A DNA stretch of 33,271 bases from a virus. The notes beneath the pieces are model-generated. The model saw nothing but the letters and a program-made list of their open reading frames with translations, was not told the DNA's origin and searched no databases. This document shows, piece by piece, positions 1,639 to 15,146 of this stretch. Positions within the stretch are counted from its first letter, which is position 1, and each line of letters starts with the position of its first letter. Where the stretch lies: IMG/VR virus record IMGVR_UViG_3300009495_000004; one strand, 5' to 3'. The translations under genes and the position numbers were made by a program.

Positions 1639-1670
1639 TATATTTATATCTTAATCATAAAATTAATAAA

Positions 1671-3066: not shown

Positions 3067-3167
3067 AATATTTTTTTATATATTTAGAAAGCTAAAAGCA
3101 AAACTTACACAACCTAATAAAGATGGACGGTGTTTGGATCAGGCAATTAAAAAAATAAATTTTTAGA

Positions 3168-3235
3168 GGCTTTTTCTTTCTTTTTGTTTTTATTTTCTTT
3201 TGGGGATTTGTTTGTTTTTTGTTTTTGTTTGTTTT
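3168..3235 (+). repeat. T/G-only low-complexity tract with reiterated TTTG in the lysis-to-early intergenic region
   Basis: ggctttttctttctttttgtttttattttcttttggggatttgtttgttttttgtttttgtttgtttt contains only two A residues in 68 nt and at least six TTTG units. It lies in the longest non-coding gap (3067..3257). Confidence 0.6.
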
Positions 3236-3257
3236 AGTTAATATTTTATTTATATAA

Positions 3258-3650
3258 ATGAAAAAAATATCTCGAAAAAATATAGTTAAAAGACTTGATA
3301 CTGTATTCAGTTTATATATAAGACTTAGAGAAGCAAAAGATGAAATGGTTGAATGTTTTACTTGTGGTAAAATAAGCCATTATAAAAAAAATATGCAATG
3401 TGGACATTTTCAATCTCGATCATCTTATTCAACTCGTTGGGATCCTACAAATTGTCAAGTTCAGTGCTATGGTTGTAATGTTATGCAACAAGGAAGACAA
3501 TATGTATTTGGATTAAATTTAGAAAAAAAATATGGCGATGGGGTTGCAGAGGATTTATTAATTAAATCTAAACAAACTGTAAAATATAGTAATGAAGATC
3601 TTAAAGAAATGATTTTATATTACAATAATTTGGTAAATCAATTATTATAA
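3258..3650 (+). CDS. ninG: NinG/Rap-like recombination endonuclease
   Basis: FSLYIRLR...ECFTCGK...MQCGHFQSR...RWDPTNCQVQCYGCN matches the Cys/His pattern of the lambda NinG family. Confidence 0.7.
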   Translation: MKKISRKNIVKRLDTVFSLYIRLREAKDEMVECFTCGKISHYKKNMQCGHFQSRSSYSTRWDPTNCQVQCYGCNVMQQGRQYVFGLNLEKKYGDGVAEDLLIKSKQTVKYSNEDLKEMILYYNNLVNQLL

Positions 3651-3688
3651 TTATATTTGAATGTGTTCTGTTTCGTTTTGTAGAAAAG

Positions 3689-3716
3689 AGGGTTAATTTA
3701 TATTAGCCCTTTTTTT
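3689..3716 (+). terminator. Rho-independent terminator
   Basis: A 9-bp stem agggttaat/attagccct (one G-U pair) with a 4-nt loop ttat, followed by T6. Confidence 0.7.
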
Positions 3717-3763
3717 ATTGATTTATTTTTTATATATTTGTTTTAAATATAAAATATATATAA

Positions 3764-3964
3764 ATGGAAAGAACAATAACTTACGAGGAGCATTATGTTC
3801 AAGTTGGTTTTTATCAATCAATTATTAAGCAAAAAGAAAAAGAAGTAAACGATTTAAGAGATCAACTTAAACTATCTAATGATTTATTAAAAAAATCAAA
3901 AGGCATAATTGAAACAGTAAAAGCTAAATTAGAAGTAACTCAACAAAACAGAATAGTAATATGA
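3764..3964 (+). CDS. Hypothetical protein, 66 aa, coiled-coil-like
   Basis: ORF track. A TATATTTG element lies at 3733..3740 upstream. ATGA overlap with the next gene. Confidence 0.5.
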   Translation: MERTITYEEHYVQVGFYQSIIKQKEKEVNDLRDQLKLSNDLLKKSKGIIETVKAKLEVTQQNRIVI

Positions 3965-4473
3965 AACAAAATATTTACTCTAAATTATATAAATTACAAA
4001 GTGAACTTGGATCAATTAGTAAAGATGCAACTAACCCTTTTTATAAATCAAAGTATTTTGATATTAATTCTTTAATAGGCCAATTAAAGCCATTATTAGA
4101 AAAACATAATCTTTTATTATTGCAGCCAATAACAGATAATCAAGTTAGAAGTATTATTTTTGATTTAGATGGTGGATCTGTTGAATCCTCTATGCCTTTA
4201 CCAAATGATTTAGATGCTCAAAAACTTGGATCCGCAATTACTTATTTTAGGCGATATACTTTGCAAAGTTTATTAGCTTTACAAGCGATTGATGATGATG
4301 GCAATTTAGCTATTAAAAAAAAAAGCAAACCTAAGTTAATAAATAACACACCTCAGTTTAAAAATGCATTAGATGCTATGAGCAAAGGCAAAACAATAAA
4401 CGATATAAAAGAGCATTATATTATAACTCAAGACATTGAAAATAAATTATTAAATTTTAAAATAGATGAATAA
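3961..4473 (+). CDS. erf: ERF-family single-strand annealing protein (recombinase)
   Basis: KDATNPFYKSKYFDINSLIGQLKPLLEKHNL and LGSAITYFRRYTLQSLLAL match the conserved ERF motifs. Confidence 0.65.
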   Translation: MKQNIYSKLYKLQSELGSISKDATNPFYKSKYFDINSLIGQLKPLLEKHNLLLLQPITDNQVRSIIFDLDGGSVESSMPLPNDLDAQKLGSAITYFRRYTLQSLLALQAIDDDGNLAIKKKSKPKLINNTPQFKNALDAMSKGKTINDIKEHYIITQDIENKLLNFKIDE

Positions 4474-4594
4474 ATTAAATGCAGCTTTATTGTTGAAACT
4501 AAGTCAAAAAGACAAAGATTATTTAACTGAAAAAGCAAAAGAAAAAAGAATGTCCTTATCAGGATATATAAGAAATGAATTATTAAACAATTAA
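4466..4594 (+). CDS. Small ribbon-helix-helix (CopG/MobC-like) protein, 42 aa, paralogue 1
   Basis: Not in the ORF track. The protein is MNKLNAALLLKLSQKDKDYLTEKAKEKRMSLSGYIRNELLNN, with an RHH beta-strand/helix pattern. Its 3' end is identical to that of the next ORF. Confidence 0.5.
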   Translation: MNKLNAALLLKLSQKDKDYLTEKAKEKRMSLSGYIRNELLNN

Positions 4595-4596
4595 AT

Positions 4597-4740
4597 ATGG
4601 AAGAAATTAATCAATTAAATTATAATGAAACTATTCATCTTAAAGTTACTAAAGAAGATAAACAGATTATAAGAAATAAAGCTAAAGCAAAAAGAATGAC
4701 AATGAATAGTTATATCAGAAACGAATTATTAAACAATTAA
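4597..4740 (+). CDS. Small ribbon-helix-helix (CopG/MobC-like) protein, 47 aa, paralogue 2
   Basis: Not in the ORF track. The protein is MEEINQLNYNETIHLKVTKEDKQIIRNKAKAKRMTMNSYIRNELLNN. It shares ...KRM.(L/M).(G/S)YIRNELLNN* with 4466..4594. Confidence 0.5.
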   Translation: MEEINQLNYNETIHLKVTKEDKQIIRNKAKAKRMTMNSYIRNELLNN

Positions 4741-4751
4741 ATATATAAAAT

Positions 4752-5042
4752 ATGGGAGCAATTATTAAAGCAAGTATAAGGGTAGATAAACTACCTAAAG
4801 AAAAATTTATTAAAGGAAAAGATGGTGCGGTTTATTATAACCTAACTATCTCTGTCAATGATGACACAAGATACGGAAATAACGTAGCTATAATGGATTC
4901 ACAAACTAAAGAGGAAAGAGAGGCTAAAGCTCAAAAAACTTATTTAGGCAACGGTAAAGTTGTTTGGCATAACGAAATTATAAAGTTAGCTGAGAGACAA
5001 GAAGAAGTTGTTGAATCTAATAATGATGATTTACCTTTTTAA
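4752..5042 (+). CDS. Small SSB-like protein (96 aa) with an acidic DDLPF C-terminal tip
   Basis: The C-terminus ...EEVVESNNDDLPF mimics the DDDIPF protein-interaction tail of bacterial SSB. The gene sits in the recombination module next to ERF. Confidence 0.5.
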   Translation: MGAIIKASIRVDKLPKEKFIKGKDGAVYYNLTISVNDDTRYGNNVAIMDSQTKEEREAKAQKTYLGNGKVVWHNEIIKLAERQEEVVESNNDDLPF

Positions 5043-5084
5043 TATTATACTACTATTGGAGAGATAGTTTAATATTATTTAATT

Positions 5085-5114
5085 AAGGGGGTAATTTTTA
5101 CCTCCTTTTTTTTT
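5085..5114 (+). terminator. Rho-independent terminator
   Basis: Stem aaggggg/cctcctt (one G-U pair) with loop taattttta, followed by a long T run (5106..5114). Confidence 0.65.
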
Positions 5115-5225
5115 ATGAAAAAATTAACAGACAAACAAATTAAAGCAAATAATAGAATTAGAAAACATTATTTTAAGGTTGAAAAAAAATATAATTTGCA
5201 TAAGAAAAAATAATATATTTAGTAA

Positions 5226-6074
5226 ATGCAATTAAGACTTGACGAAAAACAGACAATACAATATTTAACAATGCAAGCTATTGAAGAAGATTGCAAAATT
5301 GATGCTAAAAAAACAATTGAATATCCACCCGTAGCATTATCTTTAGGAGAAAAATTAATAAAATCATCAAAGGGAGATCTTTTGCTTCCGATACCTATTG
5401 GAACTTACGGCAACTTTTCTGTTGTAAGCGCACCCCCTAAAACCAAAAAAACTTTTTTTATATCCTTATTAGCCTCAGTTTATTTAGGCAAAAAAAATAT
5501 ATTTGGAGGCAATATAAAAGGCCACAGAGAAGATAAAAACTTAATTCATATTGATACTGAGCAAGGCAAATGGCACGCTCAAAAATGTTTTAAAAGGGCC
5601 TTAGATATGAATGATTCGGATTATTCAGAATTTTATTATACTTTTGGATTAAGAACATTAAATTACAAAACAAGAATTGAGTTCATTGAGTATTGTTTAG
5701 AGCATAAAGTTAAAAATACAGGCTTATTAATTATTGACGGCATTGCTGATTTAGTTTCAGATGTTAATAATATTGAGGAATCTAATGCTTGTATTCAAAA
5801 AATTATGGAATGGTCGTCAAATTATAAATGCCATATAATTTGTGTTATTCATTCAAACTTTGGATCCGATAAAATGACAGGACACCTTGGATCATTTATA
5901 GAAAAAAAGACAGAAACTCAAATTCAATTAGAAGCAAACACAGTAAATAAAGAATGGGTAACAGTAAAATGTAAAAGAAGCAGAGGATTCTCATTTGATA
6001 CGTTTAGTTTTAAAGTTAACGAAATAGGATTGCCTGAAATAATAGGGGACCTATACGACCCACTTAAAAATTAA
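5226..6074 (+). CDS. RecA-fold ATPase, RepA/DnaB-C-terminal (AAA_25-like), probable replicative helicase or helicase loader
   Basis: A deviant Walker A (SAPPKTKKTFFISLLA), a Walker B (GLLIIDGIADLV) and HIICVIHSN. The size and position fit a replication ATPase. Confidence 0.5.
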   Translation: MQLRLDEKQTIQYLTMQAIEEDCKIDAKKTIEYPPVALSLGEKLIKSSKGDLLLPIPIGTYGNFSVVSAPPKTKKTFFISLLASVYLGKKNIFGGNIKGHREDKNLIHIDTEQGKWHAQKCFKRALDMNDSDYSEFYYTFGLRTLNYKTRIEFIEYCLEHKVKNTGLLIIDGIADLVSDVNNIEESNACIQKIMEWSSNYKCHIICVIHSNFGSDKMTGHLGSFIEKKTETQIQLEANTVNKEWVTVKCKRSRGFSFDTFSFKVNEIGLPEIIGDLYDPLKN

Positions 6075-6089
6075 ATATGATTAAAAGTT

Positions 6090-6560
6090 TTGTTATCTAA
6101 AATTTTCCAAAAACATAAAATTTGGATTGATATTGTATCTTCCTTTGGTTGTAACAAAGATACTGCAGAAGATATAGTTCAAGAAATGTATATTAAAATA
6201 CAAAGAAATCTTAATAATGGTTTAGATATTAATTATGATGATGATTATAATTACTTCTATATTTTTAAAACTCTTAAAAGTATGTTTTTAGATTTAAAAA
6301 GAAAAGAAGCTAAAATAATTATACTTAACATTGATGATCAAATTTCATATTTTAATGATAATTATGATGTTAATTATCAAGCTTCATATAATAAAGTTCT
6401 TAAAGAATTAAATAAATTATATTGGTATGATAAAAAAGTTTATCAATTATTAGAGGGCAACGAATCAGTTGCAAAACTATCAAGAAAGACAAATATTCCT
6501 TACCACTCGTTATATAATACATATAGGAAAGTTTTAGAAAGATTAAAAAAAGTAATATGA
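6090..6560 (+). CDS. Sigma-70/ECF-like RNA polymerase sigma factor (TTG start)
   Basis: A region-2-like TAEDIVQEMYIKIQ and a C-terminal HTH VAKLSRKTNIPYHSLYNTYRKVLERLKK. The frame opens only after the tga at 6078..6080, and the first in-frame ATG is 32 codons in. TTG at 6090 is therefore the likely start. Confidence 0.5.
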   Translation: MLSKIFQKHKIWIDIVSSFGCNKDTAEDIVQEMYIKIQRNLNNGLDINYDDDYNYFYIFKTLKSMFLDLKRKEAKIIILNIDDQISYFNDNYDVNYQASYNKVLKELNKLYWYDKKVYQLLEGNESVAKLSRKTNIPYHSLYNTYRKVLERLKKVI

Positions 6561-6691
6561 AATTAGGAGATTTAGTTTATTATTTTACAAAATACACAGG
6601 CATACGATACATTTATAAAAAAATTAATCCTGATTGCGAGTGCGATAAAAGGCGCAAAAAATGGAATGATATAAAAATTAAAAGATGGTAA
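6557..6691 (+). CDS. Small basic ORF, 44 aa
   Basis: Not in the ORF track. ATGA-type overlap with the sigma gene stop, and its own stop overlaps the next ATG. The protein is MKLGDLVYYFTKYTGIRYIYKKINPDCECDKRRKKWNDIKIKRW. Confidence 0.35.
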   Translation: MKLGDLVYYFTKYTGIRYIYKKINPDCECDKRRKKWNDIKIKRW

Positions 6692-6891
6692 AATTTAGTA
6701 AAGATGATTACAATAAATGGCTTGAGTTTCGACAATCAAACAATGACTTACAAAACAGAGAGTATAAACTTTTGTGCAAGTTGCACTCAAAATATTACAA
6801 GCATCCTATACATTATCCCTGCACCTGTTCTCTCCATACAATAAATAAATGGATAAAAGAATTAAACTCAATATTTGATAATGGGAATTGA
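6685..6891 (+). CDS. Hypothetical protein, 68 aa
   Basis: ORF track. Contains a Cys/His-containing segment, HPIHYPCTCSLH. Confidence 0.45.
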   Translation: MVKFSKDDYNKWLEFRQSNNDLQNREYKLLCKLHSKYYKHPIHYPCTCSLHTINKWIKELNSIFDNGN

Positions 6892-7294
6892 ATCTATTAA
6901 AAAACTTGAGCAGGCTGTTGTAAAATTTATGAATTTTGATGGCTGGGATCTTGAGTGGACTGGAGATGGTTTTAAACATTATGATGCTTGCGGTTTTACA
7001 AGAAAAGGCAAACCTTGTGTTATTGAAATGAAATTTAGAAATAAATACTATGAGGAGAAAATGCTTGAGAAATTTAAATATGATGCTTTAATGAAGATGG
7101 ATCCAGAGGTTGTAAAATTATATTTCGTTAATGATCCTAAAGGCAATTTTTTATATTGGTTAAATAAAATAAAACTTCCAAAAGAAACTAAAATGTATTG
7201 TCCTGATACAACAATGTGGACAAAGAAAAGATTATTAAAACCTGTTTATTTATTAAAAGAAAATCAAGCAAGCAAAATAAATTTGAATATCTAA
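6875..7294 (+). CDS. Hypothetical protein, possible PD-(D/E)XK (VRR-NUC-like) nuclease
   Basis: HYDACGF...KPCVIEMKFR gives a D...ExK arrangement. This is weak, motif-only evidence. Confidence 0.3.
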   Translation: MIMGIESIKKLEQAVVKFMNFDGWDLEWTGDGFKHYDACGFTRKGKPCVIEMKFRNKYYEEKMLEKFKYDALMKMDPEVVKLYFVNDPKGNFLYWLNKIKLPKETKMYCPDTTMWTKKRLLKPVYLLKENQASKINLNI

Positions 7295-7328
7295 TATATA
7301 TTTTATATATTTAATGAAAATATAAATT

Positions 7329-7514
7329 ATGACGAAATTAGGAAAATACAAAACAAATTTAACTTTATTAGGAAATTGGGTATATAGTTATAGCACCCAC
7401 GTAGCAACTATTGAAGACAATAAACTTATTCAGTTAGGTTATTGGTCGCAAACAACTCAAAAGCATATTAATTATGTAGCTAAGGAACTTGATTTAGATT
7501 TAATAAATGAATAA
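7329..7514 (+). CDS. Hypothetical protein, 61 aa
   Basis: ORF track. Compact spacing, and overlaps the next gene. Confidence 0.45.
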   Translation: MTKLGKYKTNLTLLGNWVYSYSTHVATIEDNKLIQLGYWSQTTQKHINYVAKELDLDLINE

Positions 7515-7824
7515 AGATATTGCTAAACAACTTAAAGAATTTAGCATTATAGTTAAAAATAGATATTCTAATCAAAACAGGGCAAATAACTTTAATAACG
7601 AAACTTTTGAGGTACAAGAAATAATACCTACAAGCGATCATTCAGCAACGATTATATTTGAAAAAAATACAAATAAGAGATGTGCTATGTTTTTTTATTA
7701 TATACCAAGACAAAAAAAATGGCATTATTTTGTTCCAACTGATTCACATATAAACGGAATGAATTGTTTTGCAAATCAAAAAATAGAAGTTGAAAGACAT
7801 AATTATAAATATAATTTTAAATAA
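7507..7824 (+). CDS. Hypothetical protein, 105 aa
   Basis: ORF track. No recognisable motif. Confidence 0.5.
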   Translation: MNKDIAKQLKEFSIIVKNRYSNQNRANNFNNETFEVQEIIPTSDHSATIIFEKNTNKRCAMFFYYIPRQKKWHYFVPTDSHINGMNCFANQKIEVERHNYKYNFK

Positions 7825-7830
7825 ATAAAA

Positions 7831-8040
7831 ATGGGACATACACCACACGCATTTGAAAATCAGATTTTTAATCATTATAGAGAAAAGGCAAAAGAAATAA
7901 ATTTAGCAATTGAATTATTAGTTGAGCATAATTACACAGTAGTTGATTTGCAAGGGCAAATTATAAATAAAGAAACTATACACAATGACAAACAGCCTAT
8001 TATTTCTTCCCCACGATATAAAAAAATAAATAAAGAATGA
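7831..8040 (+). CDS. Hypothetical protein, 69 aa
   Basis: ORF track. ATGA overlap with the exonuclease gene. Confidence 0.45.
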   Translation: MGHTPHAFENQIFNHYREKAKEINLAIELLVEHNYTVVDLQGQIINKETIHNDKQPIISSPRYKKINKE

Positions 8041-8750
8041 TTTTATTATTTGACGCAGACAGCTTAGTTTTTGCAAGTTGTTATAGGCCAAAAACAGATG
8101 ATATAGAAAATATTTTTTATACTGATATTGCTGATTCAATTAATAAATTTGATGAGCAATTTATGAAAATAGTTAATGATCTTGAAGAAAAATACGAGAT
8201 AGAAAAGGTTATTACTTTTAATGGTTGCAAAGGCAACTTTAGAAAAAAACTATCTAAAAATTATAAAGCTAATAGAAAAAAACAAACACTCCCACCTCTG
8301 TTACACCCTATGCACGATTACGTAAAAAAAACATACGAGAGCAAATTTGCTTATGGTATTGAGACAGATGATATGGTTGCAAGGTATTGGTTTGAATTAT
8401 CAAATCAGTTTGGCAGGGATAATGTAATGATCATATCAATAGATAAAGATTATAAACAATTTCCAGCCTTAATTTATAATTATCATTATAAACATAAAAC
8501 GATTCTTGATATATCAGAAGATGAAGCATTATATAATTTTTATGAGCAAATGATAGTTGGCGACACAGCAGACAACGTAAATTTCTTTAAAGGCAAGGGG
8601 GTTAAGTTTGCACAAAAATATTTTAAAGATTGCTCTACTAAATATCAATACACAAAAAAACTTTATGAATTATTTAAAAAACAATATAAAAGCAAAGCAA
8701 AATTAAAGTATATTGAATGTTTTAATCTTTTAAAATTATTAACAGAATGA
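8037..8750 (+). CDS. 5'-3' exonuclease / flap endonuclease (FEN, PIN-like)
   Basis: Acidic motifs LLFDADSLVF, YKANRK, GIETDDMV, ISIDKDYKQ and GDTADNVNFFKGKG are typical of T5 D15 / Pol I 5'-nuclease family proteins. Confidence 0.8.
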   Translation: MILLFDADSLVFASCYRPKTDDIENIFYTDIADSINKFDEQFMKIVNDLEEKYEIEKVITFNGCKGNFRKKLSKNYKANRKKQTLPPLLHPMHDYVKKTYESKFAYGIETDDMVARYWFELSNQFGRDNVMIISIDKDYKQFPALIYNYHYKHKTILDISEDEALYNFYEQMIVGDTADNVNFFKGKGVKFAQKYFKDCSTKYQYTKKLYELFKKQYKSKAKLKYIECFNLLKLLTE

Positions 8751-8860
8751 GAAAAAAATTAAAAAATAAAAAAATTAAATTTATAGCTTGTAATGAATTT
8801 GATCAAACTTATATTTGGCATAAAACAAATAAAGGAGGCAAAACAAAAAGATCAAAATAA
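8747..8860 (+). CDS. Small basic ORF, 37 aa (low support)
   Basis: Not in the ORF track. ATGA overlap with the FEN stop. The protein is MRKKLKNKKIKFIACNEFDQTYIWHKTNKGGKTKRSK. Confidence 0.25.
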   Translation: MRKKLKNKKIKFIACNEFDQTYIWHKTNKGGKTKRSK

Positions 8861-8881
8861 ATTTGTCTTTTAAAAAAAAAT

Positions 8882-8897
8882 AATTATTACGTTATAT
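8882..8897 (+). promoter_or_regulatory. CGTTATAT box (AATTATTACGTTATAT), candidate phage-specific promoter in front of the modification/terminase operon
   Basis: The 16-mer is identical to 24022..24037. The C of the core lies 10 nt upstream of the ATG at 8900. Confidence 0.4.
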
Positions 8898-8899
8898 AT

Positions 8900-9430
8900 A
8901 TGAAAGCTATAAAAATTAAAGTATCAGAAATAAAATCAAATTTAAATAATCCTCGATTAATTAAAGATCAAAAATTTAGCAAATTAGTTGAAAGCATCAA
9001 AGAATTTCCTAAAATGATGAATTTAAGACCGATAGTAGTTGATGAGAATAATGTTATATTGGGTGGCAATATGAGATTTAAAGCCTCAATAAAAGCAGGT
9101 TTTAAAGAAGTTTATGTGTTAAGGGCTGAGGATTTAACTGATAAACAAAAAAAAGAATTTATTATAAAAGACAATGTAGGTTTTGGAGAATGGGATTGGG
9201 ATATATTAGCGAATCAATTTGAAAACTCAGATCTTAACGAATGGGGTTTAGATGTTTGGGACACTAAAGATATTGATCTTGATGATTTCTTTTCTGATGA
9301 TATGGAAGATAAAGAAGAAACAAATAAAATAATTTTAGAGTATAATGAAAAAGATTATAATTTTGTAATAGATCAATTAAACAAAAAAGAGGGAAGCAAA
9401 GAAGATATTATATTTAATTTATTAAAATAG
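8900..9430 (+). CDS. ParB N-terminal (ParB/Srx-fold) domain protein
   Basis: IKVSEIKSNLNNPR...LRPIVVDENNVILGGNMRFKASIKAGF matches the ParB-like nuclease domain core (GG.hR..A). The C-terminal half is acidic. The gene lies immediately upstream of dpdA. Confidence 0.65.
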   Translation: MKAIKIKVSEIKSNLNNPRLIKDQKFSKLVESIKEFPKMMNLRPIVVDENNVILGGNMRFKASIKAGFKEVYVLRAEDLTDKQKKEFIIKDNVGFGEWDWDILANQFENSDLNEWGLDVWDTKDIDLDDFFSDDMEDKEETNKIILEYNEKDYNFVIDQLNKKEGSKEDIIFNLLK

Positions 9431-9433
9431 ATA

Positions 9434-10303
9434 ATGCAAATTTATATATGCATTCGAGGACCTTTGTCTCCTCTCTGGAAAACATTAATGAAATTATATT
9501 TATCAGGAGCAACGACAGCAGGCAATATAAAAAACTATTGGAAAGAAGCAATGAAAGTATATTTAGCAGGTGGCAATTCTGGTTATAAATGGGCAGGGGA
9601 TTACAACGAATTAATCCAAACTCATAAACCATTAATTCTTGAAAGTTACTTTTATTTAAAAGGACAAGATGAATGGATATTAAATCTTAGACCTTTTTTT
9701 AAAGATTTCTTACTTGACTCAGGAGCTTTTACTTATTTAAATGGTTTAAAAGAATCTCCTGATTGGGATCGTTATATTGAAAATTATGCTGAATTTATTA
9801 ATAAACACAAGATTGATTTATTTATTGAATTAGATATTGATAGTGTTGTAGGTATTAAAGAGGTTGAAAGATTAAGAAATAAATTAGAGAGATTAACTAA
9901 TAAAAAAAGTATTCCTGTTTGGCATAAAAGTAGAGGCTTAGATTATTGGCATAAAATGGTAAAAGAATATGATTATGTTTCTATAGGCGGTATAGTAACT
10001 AAAGAGATTAAACAAAATGAATACGATATATTTTCTTTATTATTAAGAATAGCAAGAGAGAATAATTGTAAAGTTCACGGATTAGGTTTTACAAATTTAA
10101 AAGGTTTACAAAAATATAAGTTTTATTCTGTTGACTCTACTGCTTGGGTTTATGGTAATAGAGGGGGGTTTTTATATTTATTTAAAAATAATACCCTAAC
10201 AAAAATAGAGCCAAAGGGCAAAAGATTAAAAGGAAGAAAAGGCGCATTGCATAATTTTACAGAATGGTTAAAGTTTAGCCAATACGCAGAAAACAATTTA
10301 TAA
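9434..10303 (+). CDS. dpdA: DpdA-type DNA-guanine transglycosylase (TGT superfamily)
   Basis: PLILESYFYL and FLLDSGAFTYL motifs are as in phage/bacterial DpdA. The gene sits directly upstream of queC-queD-queE-folE. The start is uncertain (ATG at 9434, 9488 or 9551). Confidence 0.7.
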   Translation: MQIYICIRGPLSPLWKTLMKLYLSGATTAGNIKNYWKEAMKVYLAGGNSGYKWAGDYNELIQTHKPLILESYFYLKGQDEWILNLRPFFKDFLLDSGAFTYLNGLKESPDWDRYIENYAEFINKHKIDLFIELDIDSVVGIKEVERLRNKLERLTNKKSIPVWHKSRGLDYWHKMVKEYDYVSIGGIVTKEIKQNEYDIFSLLLRIARENNCKVHGLGFTNLKGLQKYKFYSVDSTAWVYGNRGGFLYLFKNNTLTKIEPKGKRLKGRKGALHNFTEWLKFSQYAENNL

Positions 10304-10969
10304 ATGAAAAAAGCATTAGTATTATTATCAGGAGGGCAAGACTCAACAACTTGTTTGTATTGGGCCAATAAACATTTTGATTATGTAGAGGCCATAGGTT
10401 TTGATTATGGACAAAGCCATAAACAAGAATTAAAACAGGCTAAAAAAATATCATCAAGATTAAATATAAAATATAAAATATTTGACATAAAAGGTTTGTT
10501 AGCATCATCATCATTAACAGAACATTCAGATCATTCGAAAGCATCTTACATTGATGATAGTTTGCCGGCATCTTTTACATCAGGCAGGAATATACTATTT
10601 TTAACTATTGCAGCAAGTTATGGAGCAGAGCAAGGAATTAATGATTTAATTACAGGAGTTTGCCAAACAGATTATAGTGGCTATCCTGATTGTAGAAAAA
10701 CAACTATTGATTCATTACAAACTACTTTATCTTTAGGCTTAGGTGCAGGAGATTATAGGATCCATACACCTTTAATGTATTTAGATAAAGCAGAAACTTG
10801 GAAAATGGCAAATGATTTAAATTGTTTAGATATTATTATAAATGACACATTAACTGATTACAATGGCGATATGACAAAAAACGAATGGGGTTATGGAAAT
10901 AAAGATAATCCTGCAACAGAGCTTAGAGTAAAAGGTTTTTATATAGCTAAAGAAAAAGGTTGGATATGA
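10304..10969 (+). CDS. queC: 7-cyano-7-deazaguanine synthase QueC homologue (lacks the zinc-cysteine cluster)
   Basis: A PP-loop LLSGGQDSTTCL, GRNILFL, ITGVCQTDYSGYPDCR and HTPLMYLDKAETW align well with B. subtilis QueC. The C-terminal Cys ligands are replaced. Confidence 0.9.
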   Translation: MKKALVLLSGGQDSTTCLYWANKHFDYVEAIGFDYGQSHKQELKQAKKISSRLNIKYKIFDIKGLLASSSLTEHSDHSKASYIDDSLPASFTSGRNILFLTIAASYGAEQGINDLITGVCQTDYSGYPDCRKTTIDSLQTTLSLGLGAGDYRIHTPLMYLDKAETWKMANDLNCLDIIINDTLTDYNGDMTKNEWGYGNKDNPATELRVKGFYIAKEKGWI

Positions 10970-11373
10970 AAATTGAAAAGAAATATTATTTTTATGCAGG
11001 CCACAGAAATAAAACTGCAGGAGAAAAATGCGGGAGATTACACGGCCATACTTATGATGTTAAATGCGTATTTAATTTTGATACAATGGTAAATGGCGTT
11101 ACAATGTTATTTAGCGATATTGACAAAAAAGTAGAGCCAATAATAAAATACTATGATCATTATTTTATATTATGGAATGAGGATCCACTTTGCGATATAT
11201 TAAAATTTGCAAATGAGCCATACAGAGAAGTTCCTTTTGAATCATCTGCAGAGAATATGGCAATATGGTTATTCAATAGAATCAAAAACGAAGCTAAGAT
11301 GCCAATTGAAAGAATAGAATTAGCTGAAACAAAAACAAGTAAAATAATATATGAGCCAAAAATTAGCGATTAG
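10960..11373 (+). CDS. queD: 6-carboxy-5,6,7,8-tetrahydropterin synthase QueD
   Basis: FYAGHRN...CGRLHGHTYDV is the canonical PTPS/QueD zinc/catalytic motif. The size (137 aa) fits. Confidence 0.9.
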   Translation: MDMKIEKKYYFYAGHRNKTAGEKCGRLHGHTYDVKCVFNFDTMVNGVTMLFSDIDKKVEPIIKYYDHYFILWNEDPLCDILKFANEPYREVPFESSAENMAIWLFNRIKNEAKMPIERIELAETKTSKIIYEPKISD

Positions 11374-12082
11374 CGAGGTATTTTACTCAATCCAAGGAGA
11401 GGGTAAGACTGTTGGGATCCCAAGTGTATTTGTTAGGCTTGGAGGTTGTAATTTAATGTGCGGAGGAATGGGAACTCAATTCGATGGAGAGTTACATAAC
11501 GGAGCAGAATTTAGATGCGATACAATAGAGGTATGGATGAAAGCAACCTCAAAAAATGTTAATGAAATATTAGATAAAGAATGTATAGAAGCAATAAAAC
11601 AAGGCGCTCACATTATTTTAACAGGTGGGGAACCAACAATGCAACAAAAAGGTTTAGAAGAGTTTATGAAATACGTTTACCAAGAAGTTAATCCTTTTGC
11701 TTATTTTGAAGTAGAAACTAACGGAACAATAATGCCTAACGAATATTTATTACTTAATATTGATTTATGGAATTGTAGTCCTAAACTTTTAAATTCAGGT
11801 AATGATAGGGCAATGACATTTAAACCAGAGATTATAAAAGAACTTAATAAACATAACTCAATTTTTAAATTTGTCATAAACGATTTAAAAGAATGGAATG
11901 AGGTTAAAGAGCTTTATTATGATATAGTAGATAAAAATAAAATATATTTAATGCCTGCAGGAGAAAATCAAGATCTACTAAATGAGAATAAATTAAATGT
12001 TGTAGAGTTAGCAATAAAAAATTATGTTAATTTCACAACAAGGTTACATATAGAAATTTGGAATAAAAAAACAGGAGTTTAA
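11351..12082 (+). CDS. queE: 7-carboxy-7-deazaguanine synthase QueE (radical SAM)
   Basis: EVFYSIQGEG...SVFVRLGGCNLMC...RCDT and ILTGGEPTM are QueE hallmarks. The Cys motif is split. Confidence 0.85.
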   Translation: MSQKLAISEVFYSIQGEGKTVGIPSVFVRLGGCNLMCGGMGTQFDGELHNGAEFRCDTIEVWMKATSKNVNEILDKECIEAIKQGAHIILTGGEPTMQQKGLEEFMKYVYQEVNPFAYFEVETNGTIMPNEYLLLNIDLWNCSPKLLNSGNDRAMTFKPEIIKELNKHNSIFKFVINDLKEWNEVKELYYDIVDKNKIYLMPAGENQDLLNENKLNVVELAIKNYVNFTTRLHIEIWNKKTGV

Positions 12083-12181
12083 TTATGGAAATTATAAAAC
12101 ACATTTTAGGATTTTGCGAGCATTCGCATCACATTAACATCTTTACAATATTTATTGTATTATTATTAATCAAATTAATTT

Positions 12182-13021
12182 ATGGAAAAAAGTTACGTAA
12201 GTTGGGAGGTCGTTTATGATCGCTTAAAAACTATACTTGAGAATACACCAAAGGATAAAACATTTTTTGGAGTGCCAAGAGGAGGGCAAATAGTATCAGG
12301 AATGACAGGTAGAGCAGTTGATAAAATAGAAGATGCTGATATTATAATTGATGATCTTATTGATAGCGGTGCAACTGAATTAAAATATAAAAAATATGAC
12401 AAACCTTTTGTTGCTTTAATTGATAAAAGAATTGAGCTACAAAATCAATGGTTAGTTTTTCCTTGGGAGGTTAAAGAAAAAGATACAGATGAAACTGTAG
12501 AAGATAATATCACAAGACTCTTACAATACTTTGGAGAAGATGTTACAAGAGAGGGATTAAGAGAAACACCTAAAAGATATGTTAAATTTTTTAAAGAGTT
12601 TTTAAATCCACCTAAATGGAATTGCACATCATTTGAGGGCGAGGGCTACGATGAAATGATAATACAAAAAAATATTCCTTTTCATTCTTTATGCGAACAT
12701 CATATAGCACCTTTCTTTGGCAAGGGCCACATTGCTTATATACCAAATAAAAAGATAGTAGGATTATCTAAATTGGCAAGAACTCTTGAAACATATTCAA
12801 GGCGATTACAAAATCAAGAAAGAATAACAACTCAGGTAGCAGAGTTTCTTTGGAATGAATTAGATCCAAAGGGGGTTGCCGTATCATTAACCGCAGTGCA
12901 TATGTGTATGGAAATGAGAGGAGTAAAAAAACATAATACTCAAACAACTACAAATAAATTGTTAGGAAAATTTAAAGAGGATTCTGTTGTTAGAAATGAA
13001 TTTTTAAGCTCAATAAGATGA
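12182..13021 (+). CDS. folE: Fusion protein: N-terminal Gpt-like phosphoribosyltransferase domain plus GTP cyclohydrolase I (FolE)
   Basis: Residues 1-97 (YVSWEVVYDRL...VPRGGQIVSG...ADIIIDDLIDSGATE...WLVFPWEV) parallel E. coli Gpt (YIVTWDML...VSRGGLVPG...FIVIDDLVDTGGT...WIEQPWDM). Residues from about 100 to 279 carry SLCEHHIAPFFGKGHIAYIP...VGLSKLAR...RLQNQERIT from FolE. Confidence 0.85.
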   Translation: MEKSYVSWEVVYDRLKTILENTPKDKTFFGVPRGGQIVSGMTGRAVDKIEDADIIIDDLIDSGATELKYKKYDKPFVALIDKRIELQNQWLVFPWEVKEKDTDETVEDNITRLLQYFGEDVTREGLRETPKRYVKFFKEFLNPPKWNCTSFEGEGYDEMIIQKNIPFHSLCEHHIAPFFGKGHIAYIPNKKIVGLSKLARTLETYSRRLQNQERITTQVAEFLWNELDPKGVAVSLTAVHMCMEMRGVKKHNTQTTTNKLLGKFKEDSVVRNEFLSSIR

Positions 13022-13374
13022 ACAAAACCGAACATAGTAAAAAAGCATTATTAGAAGCATTAGAAAAGAGCTTAGGGGTTGTAACAACAGCTTGTAAAAA
13101 AACTGAGATAGGAAGAACAACTTATTACGATTGGTATAATAATGATGAGTCTTTTAAAAAGAAAGTTGATGATCTACAAAATGTTGCATTAGATTTTGCT
13201 GAGAGCCAATTGCATAAACAAATATCTGAAAACTCAACAGCTGCAACAATTTTTTATCTTAAAACAAAAGGCAAGAAAAGAGGCTATATTGAAAGACAAG
13301 AAATAACAGGAGCAGACGGAATGCCAACTAACTTTCAAATTGAGATAATTGATAAAACCGAAGATTCAGACTAA
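13018..13374 (+). CDS. terS: Terminase small subunit
   Basis: An N-terminal HTH-like GVVTTACKKTEIGRTTYYDWY and AATIFYLKTKGKKRGY are typical of small terminase proteins. ATGA overlap with folE and a 26-nt overlap with terL. Confidence 0.65.
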   Translation: MNKTEHSKKALLEALEKSLGVVTTACKKTEIGRTTYYDWYNNDESFKKKVDDLQNVALDFAESQLHKQISENSTAATIFYLKTKGKKRGYIERQEITGADGMPTNFQIEIIDKTEDSD

Positions 13375-14512
13375 TATTGTTTATAAGCATTTAGTAAATA
13401 GCAATAAAAAAATAATAGTTGAGCAGGGCGGAACTCGATCAGGAAAGACATATAATATTCTTCTTTATATAATTTTTCATTATTGTATTAATAATAGAAA
13501 TAAAATAATAACTATTTGCCGTAAAACATTTCCAAGTTTAAGAGCAACAGTATTAAGAGATTTTTTACAGATATTAAATCAACATCAAATATACAGAGAG
13601 GATTTTCATAACAAATCAAATAGCGAGTATAATCTTTTTGGCAACTTAGTTGAATTTACATCGTTAGATCAATCGCAAAAAATTAGAGGAAGAAAAAGAG
13701 ATCTACTTTTTATTAATGAGGGAAATGAATTATATATTGATGACTGGAGACAATTAATCTTTAGAACACAAGAAAGAGTTATATTAGATTTTAACCCCTC
13801 AGATGAGTATCATTGGATATATGATCAAGTTCTTACAAGAGAAGATTGCGATTTTTATAAGACAACTTATTTAGATAACCCTTTTTTAGAGGATATTATA
13901 AAACTTGAGATTGAGAGATTAAAAGAAACAGATGATCAGTATTGGCAAATTTATGGATTAGGCGAGAGAGCAACGAGCATCAATACAATTTTTAAATATG
14001 TTGAGATAAATAAAATACCAGATGATGCGAAGTTTATTAGTTATGGCGCAGATGCAGGATTTACAAATGATCCTTCAACTTTAGTTAGTGTTTATATTAA
14101 AGATTATAATTTATATATTAAAGAGCATCTATATAGAACAATGATGACAACACTTGATATACATAAAACATTTAAAGAGGTTGGGATCCAAAGACAACAG
14201 ATCTATTTTGATTCAGCAGAACCTCGCTTAATTGCTGAATTGCGTAGAATGGGTTGGAATATATTTCCAAGTTTAAAAGGCAAAGATTCAGTTAATGCCG
14301 GAATTGATTTATTAAAAAGATATAAGATTCATATTACATCTGATTCAAAAAATGCTATTCAAGAGTTTAGAAATTATAAATGGAAACAAGATAGAACAGG
14401 AAATTTAACTAACATTCCTGAGGATAAAAATAACCACATTACAGACGCAGTGCGTTACGCAACTTATTCAATACTATCAAGACCTAATTTTGGAAGATAT
14501 GCCATACAATAA
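13349..14512 (+). CDS. terL: Terminase large subunit (PBSX/XtmB-like), non-ATG (TTG) start
   Basis: Walker A EQGGTRSGKTY, Walker B-like DLLFINEGNE, and the nuclease-domain motif GADAGFTNDPS. There is no in-frame ATG upstream of Walker A, so TTG at 13349 or a nearby non-ATG codon must initiate. Confidence 0.85.
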   Translation: MIKPKIQTNIVYKHLVNSNKKIIVEQGGTRSGKTYNILLYIIFHYCINNRNKIITICRKTFPSLRATVLRDFLQILNQHQIYREDFHNKSNSEYNLFGNLVEFTSLDQSQKIRGRKRDLLFINEGNELYIDDWRQLIFRTQERVILDFNPSDEYHWIYDQVLTREDCDFYKTTYLDNPFLEDIIKLEIERLKETDDQYWQIYGLGERATSINTIFKYVEINKIPDDAKFISYGADAGFTNDPSTLVSVYIKDYNLYIKEHLYRTMMTTLDIHKTFKEVGIQRQQIYFDSAEPRLIAELRRMGWNIFPSLKGKDSVNAGIDLLKRYKIHITSDSKNAIQEFRNYKWKQDRTGNLTNIPEDKNNHITDAVRYATYSILSRPNFGRYAIQ

Positions 14513-14633
14513 ACAATGTAAAAAATGCGATAATGATTACGTTTACATAGGTTCTGCTCAAAATGGTTTTATTTGGTTATGTAAAAAATGTAATTATTTA
14601 GAATGGGCGCCGGATCCTGACAAGATAAATTAA
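14499..14633 (+). CDS. Small zinc-ribbon protein, 44 aa
   Basis: Not in the ORF track. The protein is MPYNKQCKKCDNDYVYIGSAQNGFIWLCKKCNYLEWAPDPDKIN with two CxxC pairs. It overlaps the terL 3' end by 14 nt. Confidence 0.4.
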   Translation: MPYNKQCKKCDNDYVYIGSAQNGFIWLCKKCNYLEWAPDPDKIN

Positions 14634-14634
14634 G

Positions 14635-14666
14635 TTTGTATATTAAATATATTATATATATATTTG
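14635..14666 (+). promoter_or_regulatory. Bacteroidota-type sigma-A promoter: TTTG (-33), 20-nt spacer, TATATTTG (-7)
   Basis: TTTG at 14635..14638 and TATATTTG at 14659..14666. The element is intergenic, 28 nt upstream of the ATG at 14694. Confidence 0.6.
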
Positions 14667-14693
14667 TTATATCATTAATCAAAACTTAATAAA

Positions 14694-14846
14694 ATGAAAC
14701 TAACTTTCGAAGATAACTCAGCTTTAATAGATGTTGAATCAACTTTAAAAATGCTATTAACAGCAGAAAATTTAAGGCCATACCAAAAAGAATGGGTGGT
14801 TAAATCTTATAAAAACATTGCAAACTTTAGGTATCAACATTCTTAA
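14694..14846 (+). CDS. Hypothetical protein, 50 aa
   Basis: Not in the ORF track. It is the first ORF after the promoter, and its stop lies 3 nt before the next ATG. The protein is MKLTFEDNSALIDVESTLKMLLTAENLRPYQKEWVVKSYKNIANFRYQHS. Confidence 0.45.
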   Translation: MKLTFEDNSALIDVESTLKMLLTAENLRPYQKEWVVKSYKNIANFRYQHS

Positions 14847-14849
14847 ATT

Positions 14850-15146
14850 ATGACAGATAAAAAAAAATTAGCTAATGCTATCTTTTTAATAAGAGATTTG
14901 AAAAAACAATTAAAAGAAGCTAAAGAATATAAATTTGGAAAAACTACTTACATACACGAAACTTCTAATCTATATTGTAGCGATGGCGAAATGCATATAG
15001 GCTACGGAGATGACAAATGGTTAATATATAACACAGATCAATTATTTAAAGATCTTCCTTTTATAATTAATCAAGTTGTTAAAGAAAATGATAAAATGCA
15101 AAAAATGTATTTAGATAATATTAAAACAGAATTAAAATTATTATAA
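14850..15146 (+). CDS. Hypothetical protein, 98 aa
   Basis: ORF track. Its last stop-codon base is the first base of the next ATG. Confidence 0.5.
   Translation: MTDKKKLANAIFLIRDLKKQLKEAKEYKFGKTTYIHETSNLYCSDGEMHIGYGDDKWLIYNTDQLFKDLPFIINQVVKENDKMQKMYLDNIKTELKLL

Follow-up and report, generated by a model that had tools for sequence, protein, structure and literature searches.

A predicted 7-deazaguanine DNA-modification block upstream of the terminase genes in a small, uncultured marine phage

[quoted passage not shown] The window analysed here is the whole of IMG/VR record IMGVR_UViG_3300009495_000004 (33,271 nucleotides), which is closed on itself by a terminal overlap of 116 nt to give a complete circular genome of 33,155 bp. 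Six ORFs on the + strand between 8900 and 13021 encode, in order, a ParB-like protein, a DpdA-type DNA-guanine transglycosylase, QueC, QueD, QueE and FolE (Table 1; the folE ORF, 12182-13021, is listed by domain). Profile searches agree with the identity given to each of the six in an earlier note on this DNA, the motif strings cited there (LLDSGAFTY, SGGQDS, CGRLHGHTY and CEHHIAPFFG) are all found in the translations, and the four enzymes of the whole GTP-to-preQ0 route, FolE, QueD, QueE and QueC, are all confirmed by profiles. The order ParB-DpdA-QueC-QueD-QueE-FolE-(TerS)-TerL recurs in related viral contigs with DpdA identities of 46-100%, and was found again in dozens of uncultured marine phages. 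The block is a further example of a known system and not a new one, because Mycobacterium phage Rosebush already has the same layout. The pathway family had rightly been described as known from other phages, and the arrangement is not an unusual one, the gene order being that of Rosebush gp1-gp7.

We consider it probable that this is a counter-defence module which swaps some of the guanines in the double-stranded DNA of the phage itself for 7-cyano-7-deazaguanine (dPreQ0). FolE, QueD, QueE and QueC would convert GTP to the free base preQ0. DpdA, which is small, has the TGT fold and lacks a zinc site, would then put preQ0 in the place of guanine once the DNA has been replicated, by the mechanism with two aspartates that is known from bacterial DpdA and the tRNA transglycosylases. 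The ParB-like protein would be a nucleotide-binding DNA clamp or loader with a role equivalent to that of DpdB for bacterial DpdA. Joint transcription of the block with terS and terL, driven by CGTTATAT, would place the modification on DNA about to be packaged.

Table 1. Features of the block and the adjoining terminase genes, with the matches on which each assignment is based
Feature	Position	Strand	Evidence or remark
CGTTATAT box	8890..8897	+	2 nt 5' of the ParB ATG; candidate phage promoter element at the putative start of the transcription unit
ParB N-terminal-domain protein, 176 aa	8900..9430	+	PF02195 E 1e-5; PHROG 620 (ParB_N) E 8e-28
DpdA-type DNA-guanine transglycosylase, 289 aa	9434..10303	+	PHROG 887 'queuine tRNA-ribosyltransferase' E 4.6e-50
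QueC (7-cyano-7-deazaguanine synthase), form without the four zinc-binding cysteines	10304..10969	+	PF06508 E 8e-59; TIGR00364 197.8 > cut-off 150.3
QueD (6-carboxytetrahydropterin synthase)	10960..11373	+	QueD/PTPS PF01242 E 4e-23; PHROG 2389
QueE (radical-SAM 7-carboxy-7-deazaguanine synthase)	11351..12082	+	PHROG 2076 E 2e-55
Hydrophobic ORF, 44 aa	12085..12219	+	created by the 97-nt insertion; uses the ancestral folE ATG and AGGAG
FolE N-terminal domain, truncated xanthine-guanine phosphoribosyltransferase-like, ~100 aa	12182..12481	+	weak sequence matches to XGPRT structures
GTP cyclohydrolase I (FolE) domain	12482..13021	+	PF01227 E 2.5e-64, residues 107-278; TIGR00063 201.8 > cut-off 181.6
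Small terminase subunit (terS)	13018..13374	+	PHROG 4044 and PHROG 309 'terminase small subunit'; position conserved in relatives
Large terminase subunit (terL), PBSX type	13349..14512	+	TIGR01547 139.7 > cut-off 105; PF04466 and PF17288 match

Intergenic gaps are at most 3 nt throughout 8900-12082, from 12085 to 14633 there are overlaps only, and a scan of 7800-15000 found no terminator-like sites. The earlier description of six abutting or overlapping genes holds for most of the block and fails at the queE/folE junction, where position 12082 is the last of queE and 12182 the first of folE. The ATGA shared by the folE stop and the terS start is present at 13018-13021, as had been reported, and the coupling to the terminase genes is upheld; the CGTTATAT box is likewise in place before the block. 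Eight copies of the box occur against 0.94 expected (at least 8 in 0 of 100 shuffles). Five of the eight lie 2-8 nt before ATGs (at 8900, 16618, 24042, 24851 and 27193), and the box is retained 5' of parB in the close relatives L004, L006 and L009 despite diverging flanks. A scan for sigma-70 promoters gave 51 sites against 46.6 expected and carries no information on promoters here. The block, terS and terL appear to be read as one unit from this phage-specific element.

The core of DpdA runs from near M41, and residues 1-55 consist of tandem 'MxhYLAG' units. Its AlphaFold model (pLDDT 81) is confident over residues 60-289 and gives 34 Foldseek matches at E <= 1e-3, nearly all of them tRNA-guanine transglycosylases. 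The NCBIfam and PADLOC DpdA models match weakly and locally. It had been asked earlier whether this protein would fail TGT/DpdA profiles; it did not, matching PHROG 887 and having a TGT-like fold. Six residues show no variation (D95, S96, G97, A98, D234 and S235) and four more vary very little (F99, D134, D136 and H164); in an alignment with bacterial DpdA (7ui4) the conserved residues fall on its DCGAF and SIDST motifs.

The 5' neighbour of DpdA carries the nucleotide-binding motif GxxRxxA as G56-N-M-R59-F-K-A62 (among the proteins partnered with DpdA G56 is conserved in 60/60, R59 in 59/60 and A62 in 54/60), and its best sequence matches in the PDB are Spo0J/ParB structures. This gene lies directly 5' of DpdA in 43-45 of 48 clusters, counts that represent non-independent events since the synteny of the marine contigs is partly inherited; it is retained in all five assessable clusters without any que genes, and the pairing is seen in three further distant phage lineages. 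No ParB-DpdA fusion was found among the best 150 family representatives. Judged from these neighbourhoods, the ParB-like gene is the tightest partner of DpdA, in parallel to bacterial DpdA/DpdB, and its product is most likely a DpdA accessory subunit. The ParB-superfamily ATPase DpdB is required by bacterial DpdA in vitro (PMC10164549), and ORF1 of phage CRB2 was suggested earlier as a dpdB homologue (PMC6392294).

A possible but unlikely alternative is that the ParB-like protein is unrelated to base exchange and serves packaging or genome handling, as a ParB-like nuclease or a DNA-binding helper of terminase, and adjoins DpdA merely since both head the late operon. ParB-like or 'ParB nuclease' genes do lie near packaging genes at the genome end elsewhere (Lactobacillus phages phiLdb and c5, nt 105-465), and in clusters without que genes the ParB-DpdA pair is still ~1 kb 5' of terL. 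When que genes are present, however, ParB keeps to DpdA at ~3.6 kb from terS and is not beside the terminase; the two genes overlap in most clusters, with a modal overlap of 4 nt; and overlapping pairs remote from terminase genes occur in Fusobacterium phage phiFN37 and Campylobacter phage CC_R7, with no terminase within 5-7 kb. The nearest relatives of the ParB domain, moreover, are ParB domains fused to phage DNA methyltransferases. Some phage DpdAs function without a ParB partner (PMC6884629), which would also fit a packaging role. By comparison with these phages, ParB is not universally required for DpdA, because the DpdA of phage 9g by itself inserts preQ0 in E. coli and the Queuovirinae achieve 16-32% replacement (PMC6884629, PMC10484667) with a ParB gene absent from the DpdA neighbourhood.

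The nature of the base depends in part on QueC. Alignment to B. subtilis QueC (3bl5) places non-cysteine residues at all four Cys positions, and the cysteine-free tail is found in 120/120 close homologues. The idea that this form is a phage oddity was rejected, as it is the normal chromosomal QueC in many Bacteroidota, Rhodothermota and Planctomycetota. QueF lies within 5 kb of the chromosomal gene in 34 of 80 loci, usually adjacent, and adjoins the same QueC type in the sister phage L092. Since QueF has preQ0 as its substrate, this association suggests that the cysteine-free QueC most likely yields preQ0. Of the products named in the earlier note, dPreQ0 thus stands, and the reservation that the QueC variant might lead to dADG is weakened by the chromosomal QueC-QueF loci.

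Genes for QueF, Gat-QueC, ArcS, DpdC-like proteins and DpdL/M/N were not found in the 33,155-bp genome, and Pfam and PHROG scans of the remaining ORFs gave no candidates for QueF, amidotransferase, ArcS, DpdC/DUF6884 or methyl- or formyltransferases. Because the window is a closed, complete genome this absence holds genome-wide, extending what had been claimed for QueF, Gat-QueC, ArcS, DpdC and the methyl- and formyltransferases. About 15 small ORFs have no detectable family in these scans, and an unrecognised tailoring enzyme may therefore be among them. It is quite unlikely that the final base is another 7-deazaguanine (dADG, dCDG or an unknown derivative), which would arise if the QueC reaction went no further than the amide, if DpdA favoured a different substrate, or if a small ORF or host enzyme tailored the base. 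Precedents are the promiscuous DpdA2 of VH7D, which inserts preQ1, preQ0 and CDG, the 'QueC*' ADG synthase proposed for Campylobacter phages (both PMC10516641), and low levels of dADG in Rosebush and nt-1 DNA (PMC6884629). The module also varies in relatives, QueF being inserted in L092 and unknown genes replacing QueC in L094. Against this, the occurrence of the same QueC type beside QueF, in cellular queuosine clusters and in L092, is sensible only if preQ0 is made; the complete genome is without DpdC/DUF6884, amidotransferase or QueF; and the gene set is that of phages measured to contain mainly dPreQ0 (PMC6884629).

The QueD ORF opens with TTG at 10960, and the likely start is the in-frame ATG at 10966, which would overlap the queC stop as ATGA. 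The CxxxHGH motif, present as CGRLHGH, sets QueD apart from the decarboxylase DpdL, which has LxxxHRH (PMC10516641). The QueE cluster motif is Cx3Cx18C; the loop has exactly three cysteines in all relatives, with variable spacing, and the NCBIfam QueE models are the best scoring for this protein, yet fall below their own cut-offs. The gap between queE and folE is due to a 97-nt insertion (12088-12184) restricted to the window, L004 and L005; L006, L009 and L011 do not have it, and their queE stop and folE start overlap. By cutting folE off from its ancestral start signals the insertion could lower FolE output. The FolE N-terminal domain lacks 27-45 central residues relative to XGPRT structures, its AlphaFold model (pLDDT 92.5) has H. 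pylori XGHPRT (7kl7) as the top Foldseek match, and no variation is seen in its VPRGG and IIDDLIDSGAT loops across 30 homologues. In L092 and L094 this PRTase-like domain is encoded by a gene of its own, located between queE and folE.

That the block instead boosts or rewires host queuosine tRNA modification, as an auxiliary metabolic function that leaves the phage DNA unmodified, is highly improbable: the transglycosylase does belong to the TGT superfamily, and an action on host tRNA was once suggested for phages whose preQ0 genes come without a recognisable DpdA (PMC6884629), but this protein falls in the phage DpdA family PHROG 887, matched no family in a Pfam search (tRNA-guanine transglycosylase included), lacks the zinc subdomain of TGTs as do other phage DpdAs, and is paired with a DNA-binding ParB domain, while tested members of the gene set modify DNA (PMC6884629, PMC10516641).

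Among cultured phages the closest DpdA (42% identity) is that of phiFN37, in the cluster ParB-DpdA-DUF6884-YhhQ. A ParB-like gene overlaps the start of this DpdA, and its product is 30% identical to the ParB of the window. Its cluster is not beside the terminase and is without preQ0 synthesis genes, having instead a homologue of a preQ0 transporter and a DUF6884/YaaA-like protein that may be an analogue of DpdC; its predicted strategy is salvage, possibly giving dADG. For the window's ParB domain the greatest similarity is to the ParB domain at the N-terminus of phage 'DNA modification methylases', and a ParBc protein, of role stated as unknown, often neighbours the cytosine carboxymethyltransferase CmoX (PMC12783734). 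Here, by contrast, ParB is partnered with a transglycosylase that exchanges bases, and each is encoded by its own gene, the genes overlapping.

The DpdA of Salmonella Montevideo, likewise a DNA transglycosylase of TGT fold, shares the catalytic Asp pair and the Phe gate, and an adjacent gene encodes the ParB-superfamily NTPase that works with it (PMC10164549). Bacterial DpdA is larger, with a CxCxxC...H zinc site and an Ins8 domain, and modifies ~1 in 1000 nucleotides within a restriction-modification system; DpdC and restriction genes are absent near the window ParB. Bacterial DpdB is DndB-like with a DGQQR motif, whereas the window ParB has GNMR (GxxRxxA) and does not match the PADLOC DpdB model.

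The Queuovirinae and their relatives (Escherichia phages CAjan and 9g, Pseudomonas phages iggy and NP1) make and insert preQ0 by means of the same five enzymes, their DpdA being in the same broad family (CAjan 26.6% identity, E 1e-10, tblastn), and the FolE of NP1 and PaMx25 has an N-terminal PRTase-like extension as in the window. Their genes are ordered differently (queE-queC-queD-folE-dpdA) and adjoin those for DNA polymerase and clamp, at a distance from the terminase (PMC10484667); no ParB gene neighbours them, and some members carry Gat-QueC, leading to dG+.

The nearest parallel in layout is Rosebush (cluster B2; also CRB2 ORF1-5), whose gp1-gp7 run in the same seven-gene order from ParB-like to terminase, with similar stop/start overlaps and the block directly 5' of the terminase (PMC10484667). 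The proteins have diverged strongly, DpdA being 29% identical to that of the window over 178 residues. Rosebush gp1 is ParB-like (PHROG 723, E 4e-65), with T in place of the motif arginine, and its similarity to the window ParB is visible only via profiles. Rosebush QueC retains the zinc cysteines that the window QueC is without, its FolE (191 aa) has no match to the PRTase-like N-domain, and host phylum and GC content differ, as does the terminase, which in the window is split into terS and terL. The DNA of Rosebush carries dPreQ0 at ~25-28% of G (PMC6884629, PMC10484667).

All of the long ORFs between nucleotides 8900 and 13021 lie on the + strand, and together they make up a new marine example of the 7-deazaguanine module found in Mycobacterium phage Rosebush. 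Replacement of guanine by 7-deazaguanines enables phages to escape restriction enzymes and some CRISPR nucleases. An earlier note, made from the sequence alone, had recognized six genes here, and each of these identities was borne out by profile searches (see table). The peptide strings which it quoted were all found in the block, folE and terS are indeed joined by an ATGA at 13018-13021, and the box which it placed before the block, CGTTATAT, is located at 8890-8897, 2 nt upstream of the first ATG. Its observation is thus confirmed and its interpretation supported.

Features of the 7-deazaguanine block and the adjoining terminase genes
Feature	Coordinates	Strand	Evidence
ParB-like protein, 176 aa	8900-9430	+	PHROG 620, E = 8e-28
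DpdA-type protein, 289 aa	9434-10303	+	PHROG 887, E = 4.6e-50
QueC	10304-10969	+	PF06508, E = 8e-59; TIGR00364, 197.8 (cut-off 150.3)
QueD	10960-11373	+	PF01242, E = 4e-23, 82.1 bits (cut-off 22.4); CxxxHGH
QueE	11351-12082	+	PHROG 2076, E = 2e-55, full length
FolE protein, 279 aa	12182-13021	+	TIGR00063, 201.8 (cut-off 181.6)
terS	13018-13374		
terL, PBSX-type	13349-14512		

The window begins and ends with the same 116 nt (1-116 and 33156-33271), which indicates a closed, circular assembly of 33,155 bp. One ORF of >970 aa, tail-fibre-like and beginning at approximately 30363, is cut by the end of the window and resumes in frame in the ORF which ends at 1638. A nucleotide search against 50,697 phage records gave no matches, and this virus has no close cultured relative; neither tRNA genes nor Rfam families were found in the window. 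Using Pfam and PHROG the other ORFs were shown to include a tail fibre, endolysin, holin, NinG, Erf, an AAA protein and a 5'-3' exonuclease, in addition to an XkdF-type protease, a portal and several unknown structural proteins. The same scans revealed no DNA polymerase among the remaining ORFs. Nor was a primase detected in the phage, its replication and recombination genes (1-8750) being Erf, NinG, an AAA_25 protein and the 5'-3' exonuclease. The detected genes are all on one strand, and the cumulative GC skew climbs across the whole window. The earlier note had seen no tailoring enzymes, and the genome-wide scans agree: no QueF, glutamine amidotransferase, ArcS, DpdC/DUF6884 or DpdL/M/N was found in the remaining ORFs, a result limited by some 15 small ORFs which belong to no family. 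Since the genome is closed, this absence holds for the whole phage. The product of the module is most likely dPreQ0.

The DpdA family is large, with 4739 homologs at E ≤ 1e-5 and 6175 cluster representatives at E ≤ 1e-3. The earlier note had let its reading depend on the resemblance of this protein to TGT/DpdA profiles, and the PHROG 887 match extends over residues 37-259. Solved structures are barely reached by sequence, a search against PDB chains having given only a chance-level match and a 13-sequence profile having reached the bacterial DpdA structure 7ui4 at only E = 0.62, so that a comparison of folds was needed. An AlphaFold model built from 44 homologs (pLDDT 81, with residues 60-289 confident) gave 34 Foldseek matches in the PDB at E ≤ 1e-3; these are nearly all tRNA-guanine transglycosylases (TM approximately 0.46-0.51), and a TGT-like TIM-barrel fold is predicted from this model. 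The family shows no variation at D95, S96, G97, A98, D234 and S235 and almost none at F99, D134, D136 and H164, and these motifs can be aligned with DCGAFTY and SIDST in 7ui4. In the bacterial enzyme D95 acts as general acid/base, F99 as a gate and D256 as the nucleophile (PMC10164549). Judged against D95, F99, D130, H181 and D256 of that enzyme, the catalytic aspartates and the base-binding Phe/Asp/His appear to be present in the window protein, which is a putative guanine/preQ0 exchange enzyme acting on dsDNA. Its score with the bacterial DpdA equivalog NF041059 is 20.8 bits versus a cut-off of 200, and of the structural zinc site CxCxxCx22H, which the bacterial enzyme combines with an Ins8 domain, the CxCxxC motif is absent, there being two cysteines in total. 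This motif is likewise missing from the DpdA proteins of Rosebush, Pseudomonas phage NP1, Fusobacterium phage phiFN37 and Campylobacter phage CC_R7, so that its absence is normal for a phage-type, as opposed to bacterial, DpdA and is no peculiarity of this virus.

Residues 1-55 of DpdA (9434-9600), a region of low model confidence, consist of tandem units of approximately 20 aa (M-x-[ILV]-[YH]-[ILV]-A-G). Homologs possess one to five copies, and 246 of 267 units, internal ones among them, begin with Met. Most family members begin at the last unit, which corresponds to M41 in the window, and similar "hLHLAG" units occur at both ends of the Rosebush protein. They could represent alternative starts or a partner-binding peptide.

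QueC scores above its family cut-off and carries the SGGxDS motif (PP-loop SGGQDS, residues 9-14). In alignment with the B. subtilis structure (3bl5) all four zinc cysteines are replaced by other residues. The cysteine-free tail (TLTDYNG...NEWGYG...NPAT) is common to 120/120 of the closest homologs; within the same phage module 50 loci have the cysteine-free protein and 23 a different, cysteine-bearing type, while at L037, L038 and L046 (three of the related loci) the scaffold of the cysteine-free protein is found with cysteines (TCYNG...WGYGCGECPAC). This variant had led the earlier note to consider dADG as a possible product. A scan of one genome per prokaryotic species revealed cysteine-free QueC on contigs of up to 7.7 Mb in many Bacteroidota, Rhodothermota, Planctomycetota, Poribacteria, Ignavibacteria and Myxococcota, among them Spirosoma, Rhodocytophaga, Cesiribacter, Salinivenus, Longimonas, Pirellulaceae and others. 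The chromosomal form (genome loci L101, L113, L123, L140, L149 and others) reads HTDYNG...NEWGYG.LDNPAS, with D, N, N and S/T at the ligand positions. QueF lies within 5 kb of it at 34 of 80 genome loci, usually adjacent, as exemplified by the QueF/QueD-QueC-QueE arrangement in Spirosoma spitsbergense, and QueF also adjoins the cysteine-free QueC of the sister phage L092. Since QueF reduces preQ0, these neighbouring cysteine-free QueCs must make preQ0, and their presence in chromosomal queuosine clusters means that the zinc site is not universal to functional QueC. The dADG suggestion consequently loses most of its force. The proposed ADG synthase "QueC*" was also considered for the window protein, and was rejected on the chromosomal, QueF-linked occurrence of the tail in many bacteria. 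The phage has probably acquired a host-type QueC; the cysteine-free protein is a normal cellular form and gives no sign of a new product, which corrects a tempting over-reading.

The QueD ORF is open from 10960, and an in-frame ATG at 10966 would overlap the queC stop as ATGA. Its score with the TIGR03367 equivalog is 60.8, below the cut-off of 89.25. The motif CxxxHGH, of which the cysteine is essential, distinguishes QueD from the decarboxylase DpdL, which has LxxxHRH (PMC10516641), and the window protein combines this motif (CGRLHGH) with the PTPS profile. For QueE the NCBIfam QueE equivalogs are the best matches but fall below their cut-offs (72 vs 260). Cysteines C33, C37 and C56 form a Cx3Cx18C cluster loop (residues 33-57, 11447-11521), which contains an insertion of approximately 16 residues relative to the usual CxxxCxxC. 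Exactly three cysteines were found in 43/43 distinct loop variants of the relatives, including CxxxCxxC and Cx5Cx7C, and the window protein possesses both the three-cysteine 4Fe-4S loop and the family profile of QueE.

The cyclohydrolase occupies residues 107-278 of the FolE protein (PF01227, E = 2.5e-64), and similarity to xanthine-guanine phosphoribosyltransferases is seen in residues 1-100. For this N-terminal domain the best structural match to the AlphaFold model (pLDDT 92.5) is H. pylori XGHPRT. To judge from its sequence it carries the PPi (VPRGG) and PRPP-binding (IIDDLIDSGAT) loops of type I purine phosphoribosyltransferases, which are invariant or nearly so in 30 homologs. At about 100 aa versus 150 it lacks some 27 central residues compared with XGPRT, and some 45 compared with 1vdm; the complete type I core, with its central strands and flexible catalytic loop, was not found in residues 1-100. 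We regard it as a putative phosphoribosyltransferase from which the catalytic loop region is missing. Ten of 35 clusters have this domain fused to FolE, as do Pseudomonas phages NP1 and PaMx25, where it has apparently gone unremarked; at L092 and L094, another related locus, it has a gene of its own, invariably placed between those for QueE and FolE. One possible function is to return towards GTP the guanine which DpdA sets free; another is regulatory, through binding of PRPP or of a guanine nucleotide.

Between 8900 and 14633 the genes which do not overlap are separated by only 0-3 nt, the exception being the queE-folE interval, which is bridged by a 44-aa ORF. Relatives with 76-93% DpdA identity have the stop of queE overlapping the start of folE. 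This strain, to which L004 and L005 from other samples also belong, carries a 97-nt insertion just after the ancestral folE ATG. This ATG and its AGGAG now open the 44-aa hydrophobic ORF MEIIKHILGFCEHSHHINIFTIFIVLLLIKLIYGKKLRKLGGRL (12085-12219), which terminates 38 nt inside folE, and folE itself now starts at 12182, at a new ATG which no obvious ribosome-binding site precedes. The insertion is no obvious repeat element, a second copy having been found neither in the window nor in any fetched locus.

No terminator-like sites were found in 7800-15000, and a scan for sigma-70 promoters was uninformative. CGTTATAT is present in eight copies versus 0.94 expected, at 8890, 16606, 24030, 24835 and 27181, and on the - strand at 6508, 9770 and 22240. 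Five copies sit 2-8 nt before start codons, behind an A/T-rich stretch, and three of these five have TACAAA approximately 20 nt upstream; those at 16606 and 27181 follow terminator-like hairpin-plus-T-run sequences. Close relatives retain the copy before parB, with divergent flanks, and more distant relatives have Bacteroidetes-type TAnnTTTG elements at the same position. CGTTATAT looks like a phage promoter giving rise to leaderless or very short-leader mRNAs, and we infer, as the earlier note proposed, that parB is the first gene of a unit which reaches into terS and terL.

The ParB-like protein falls just below the cut-off for ParB_N (PF02195, 25.7 vs 26.3 bits). Its GxxRxxA motif (G56-N-M-R59-F-K-A62) is kept in 54-60 of 60 distinct partner proteins, and we assign it to the ParB/Srx N-terminal domain as a putative NTP-binding protein. 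The protein is most closely related to ParB domains which form fusions with phage DNA methyltransferases. In all, 88 viral or metagenomic loci carrying relatives at 46-100% identity were annotated with the window's own proteins and reduced to 56 DpdA clusters at 90% identity, 48 of which have at least 600 nt of upstream sequence. In 43 of these 48 a ParB-like ORF ends between -34 and +234 nt from the DpdA start, most commonly overlapping it by 4 nt. Of the five exceptions, two are artefacts of this rule, L012 having a split DpdA (in three pieces, 6511-8106) and L058 having QueC between ParB and DpdA. Six clusters lack que genes, and the ParB-DpdA pair is kept in all five with enough upstream sequence. 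Overlapping pairs also occur far from the terminase in phiFN37 and CC_R7 (L095, 1499-2744). The CC_R7 genes are annotated as "DNA binding protein" and "hypothetical protein", the latter matching PHROG 887 (E = 3e-12) and the DpdA profile (hhalign probability 96.6%); a tblastn search of phage records for a link between this protein and other Campylobacter phage DpdA3 proteins matched CC_R7 alone. In four distant phage lineages no gene accompanies DpdA more faithfully than the ParB-like gene, which persists where the que genes have been lost. The best 150 of 6175 family representatives contained no ParB-DpdA fusions, which would be Rosetta-stone evidence. Another phage DNA-modifying enzyme has been described with a comparable, equally unexplained ParBc association (PMC12783734).

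The phiFN37 locus (L001; 3093-3599, 6558-8867 and 9961-10449) contains three ParB-like genes within 7 kb, one of which adjoins a PAPS-reductase-like gene while another overlaps dpdA. After the pair in this phage come a DUF6884 protein weakly similar to YaaA/DUF328, the family of DpdC, and then a YhhQ-type preQ0 transporter, a layout which suggests a salvage-based dADG pathway.

Bacterial DpdA requires DpdB, a DndB-like ATPase of the ParB superfamily, in vitro (PMC10164549), and ORF1 of the Rosebush-related phage CRB2 has been suggested as a possible dpdB homolog (PMC6392294). The window ParB is not a member of the DpdB family, though it may work in a DpdB-like manner: a PADLOC search gave no DpdB match at E ≤ 0.1, the best hit being the ParB domain of a type II methyltransferase, and it has GGNMR instead of the DpdB motif DGQQR. 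ParB probably serves DpdA as DpdB serves the bacterial enzyme. Several phage DpdAs were inactive when expressed alone in E. coli (PMC10516641), which would be explained if ParB were needed for efficient insertion. In E. coli the DpdA of 9g inserts some preQ0 on its own (PMC6884629), and such a requirement is therefore not universal. On a more far-reaching reading the protein would be a nucleotide-gated DNA clamp, a general loading or processivity partner for many phage DpdAs, and a non-homologous stand-in for DpdB in viruses ranging from mycobacteriophages to phages of Campylobacter, Fusobacterium and marine Flavobacteriia. The miniature guanine-PRTase-like domain on FolE would trap guanine set free by DpdA, or act as a sensor of PRPP or GMP, and return the guanine to preQ0 synthesis. 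That the module, with these two parts, is a self-contained, closed-loop base-exchange machine is a tentative proposal which we consider rather unlikely; both parts are missing from current models of phage 7-deazaguanine modification.

Marine samples proved rich in DpdA homologs, and one was located in a Polaribacter MAG; the Rosebush-type layout abounds among uncultured marine phages whose hosts are probably Flavobacteriia. QueC, QueE and FolE are present in 24 of the 35 clusters with enough downstream sequence, and TerL follows in 17 of the 35. Several loci depart from this plan. In L092 QueF (3961-4362) is inserted between DpdA and QueC, which predicts a dPreQ1 modification; L094 (3413-4716) has proteins of 116 and 318 aa, of unknown family, in the place expected for QueC; L093 (3775-5065) has two QueC paralogs in tandem; and L013 (3890-5526) a tandem pair of DpdA-like ORFs.

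Among characterized phages the Queuovirinae (CAjan, 9g, iggy and NP1) possess the same enzymes as the window, but in another gene order, in a block which adjoins polymerase and clamp genes and has no ParB neighbour. In NP1 (L002, 7291-9182) the dpdA stop abuts or overlaps the gene for a "putative replicative clamp", which is followed by the DNA polymerase; one may speculate that without ParB, DpdA is coupled here to a different ring-shaped DNA-binding protein. In architecture Rosebush is the closest parallel. Its gp1-gp7 are ParB-like (gp1; PHROG 723, E = 4e-65), DpdA, QueC, QueD, QueE, FolE and terminase, with overlapping stops and starts, and this gene order and its position upstream of the terminase have been pointed out before (PMC10484667). 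Rosebush DNA carries dPreQ0 at roughly a quarter of its G residues (PMC6884629; PMC10484667). Because gene set, order and position are those of Rosebush the window adds little to the basic picture; its moderate interest lies in how widely ParB and DpdA are paired, in the PRTase-like domain and in the N-terminal repeats of DpdA, within a module which remains of the kind known from Rosebush.
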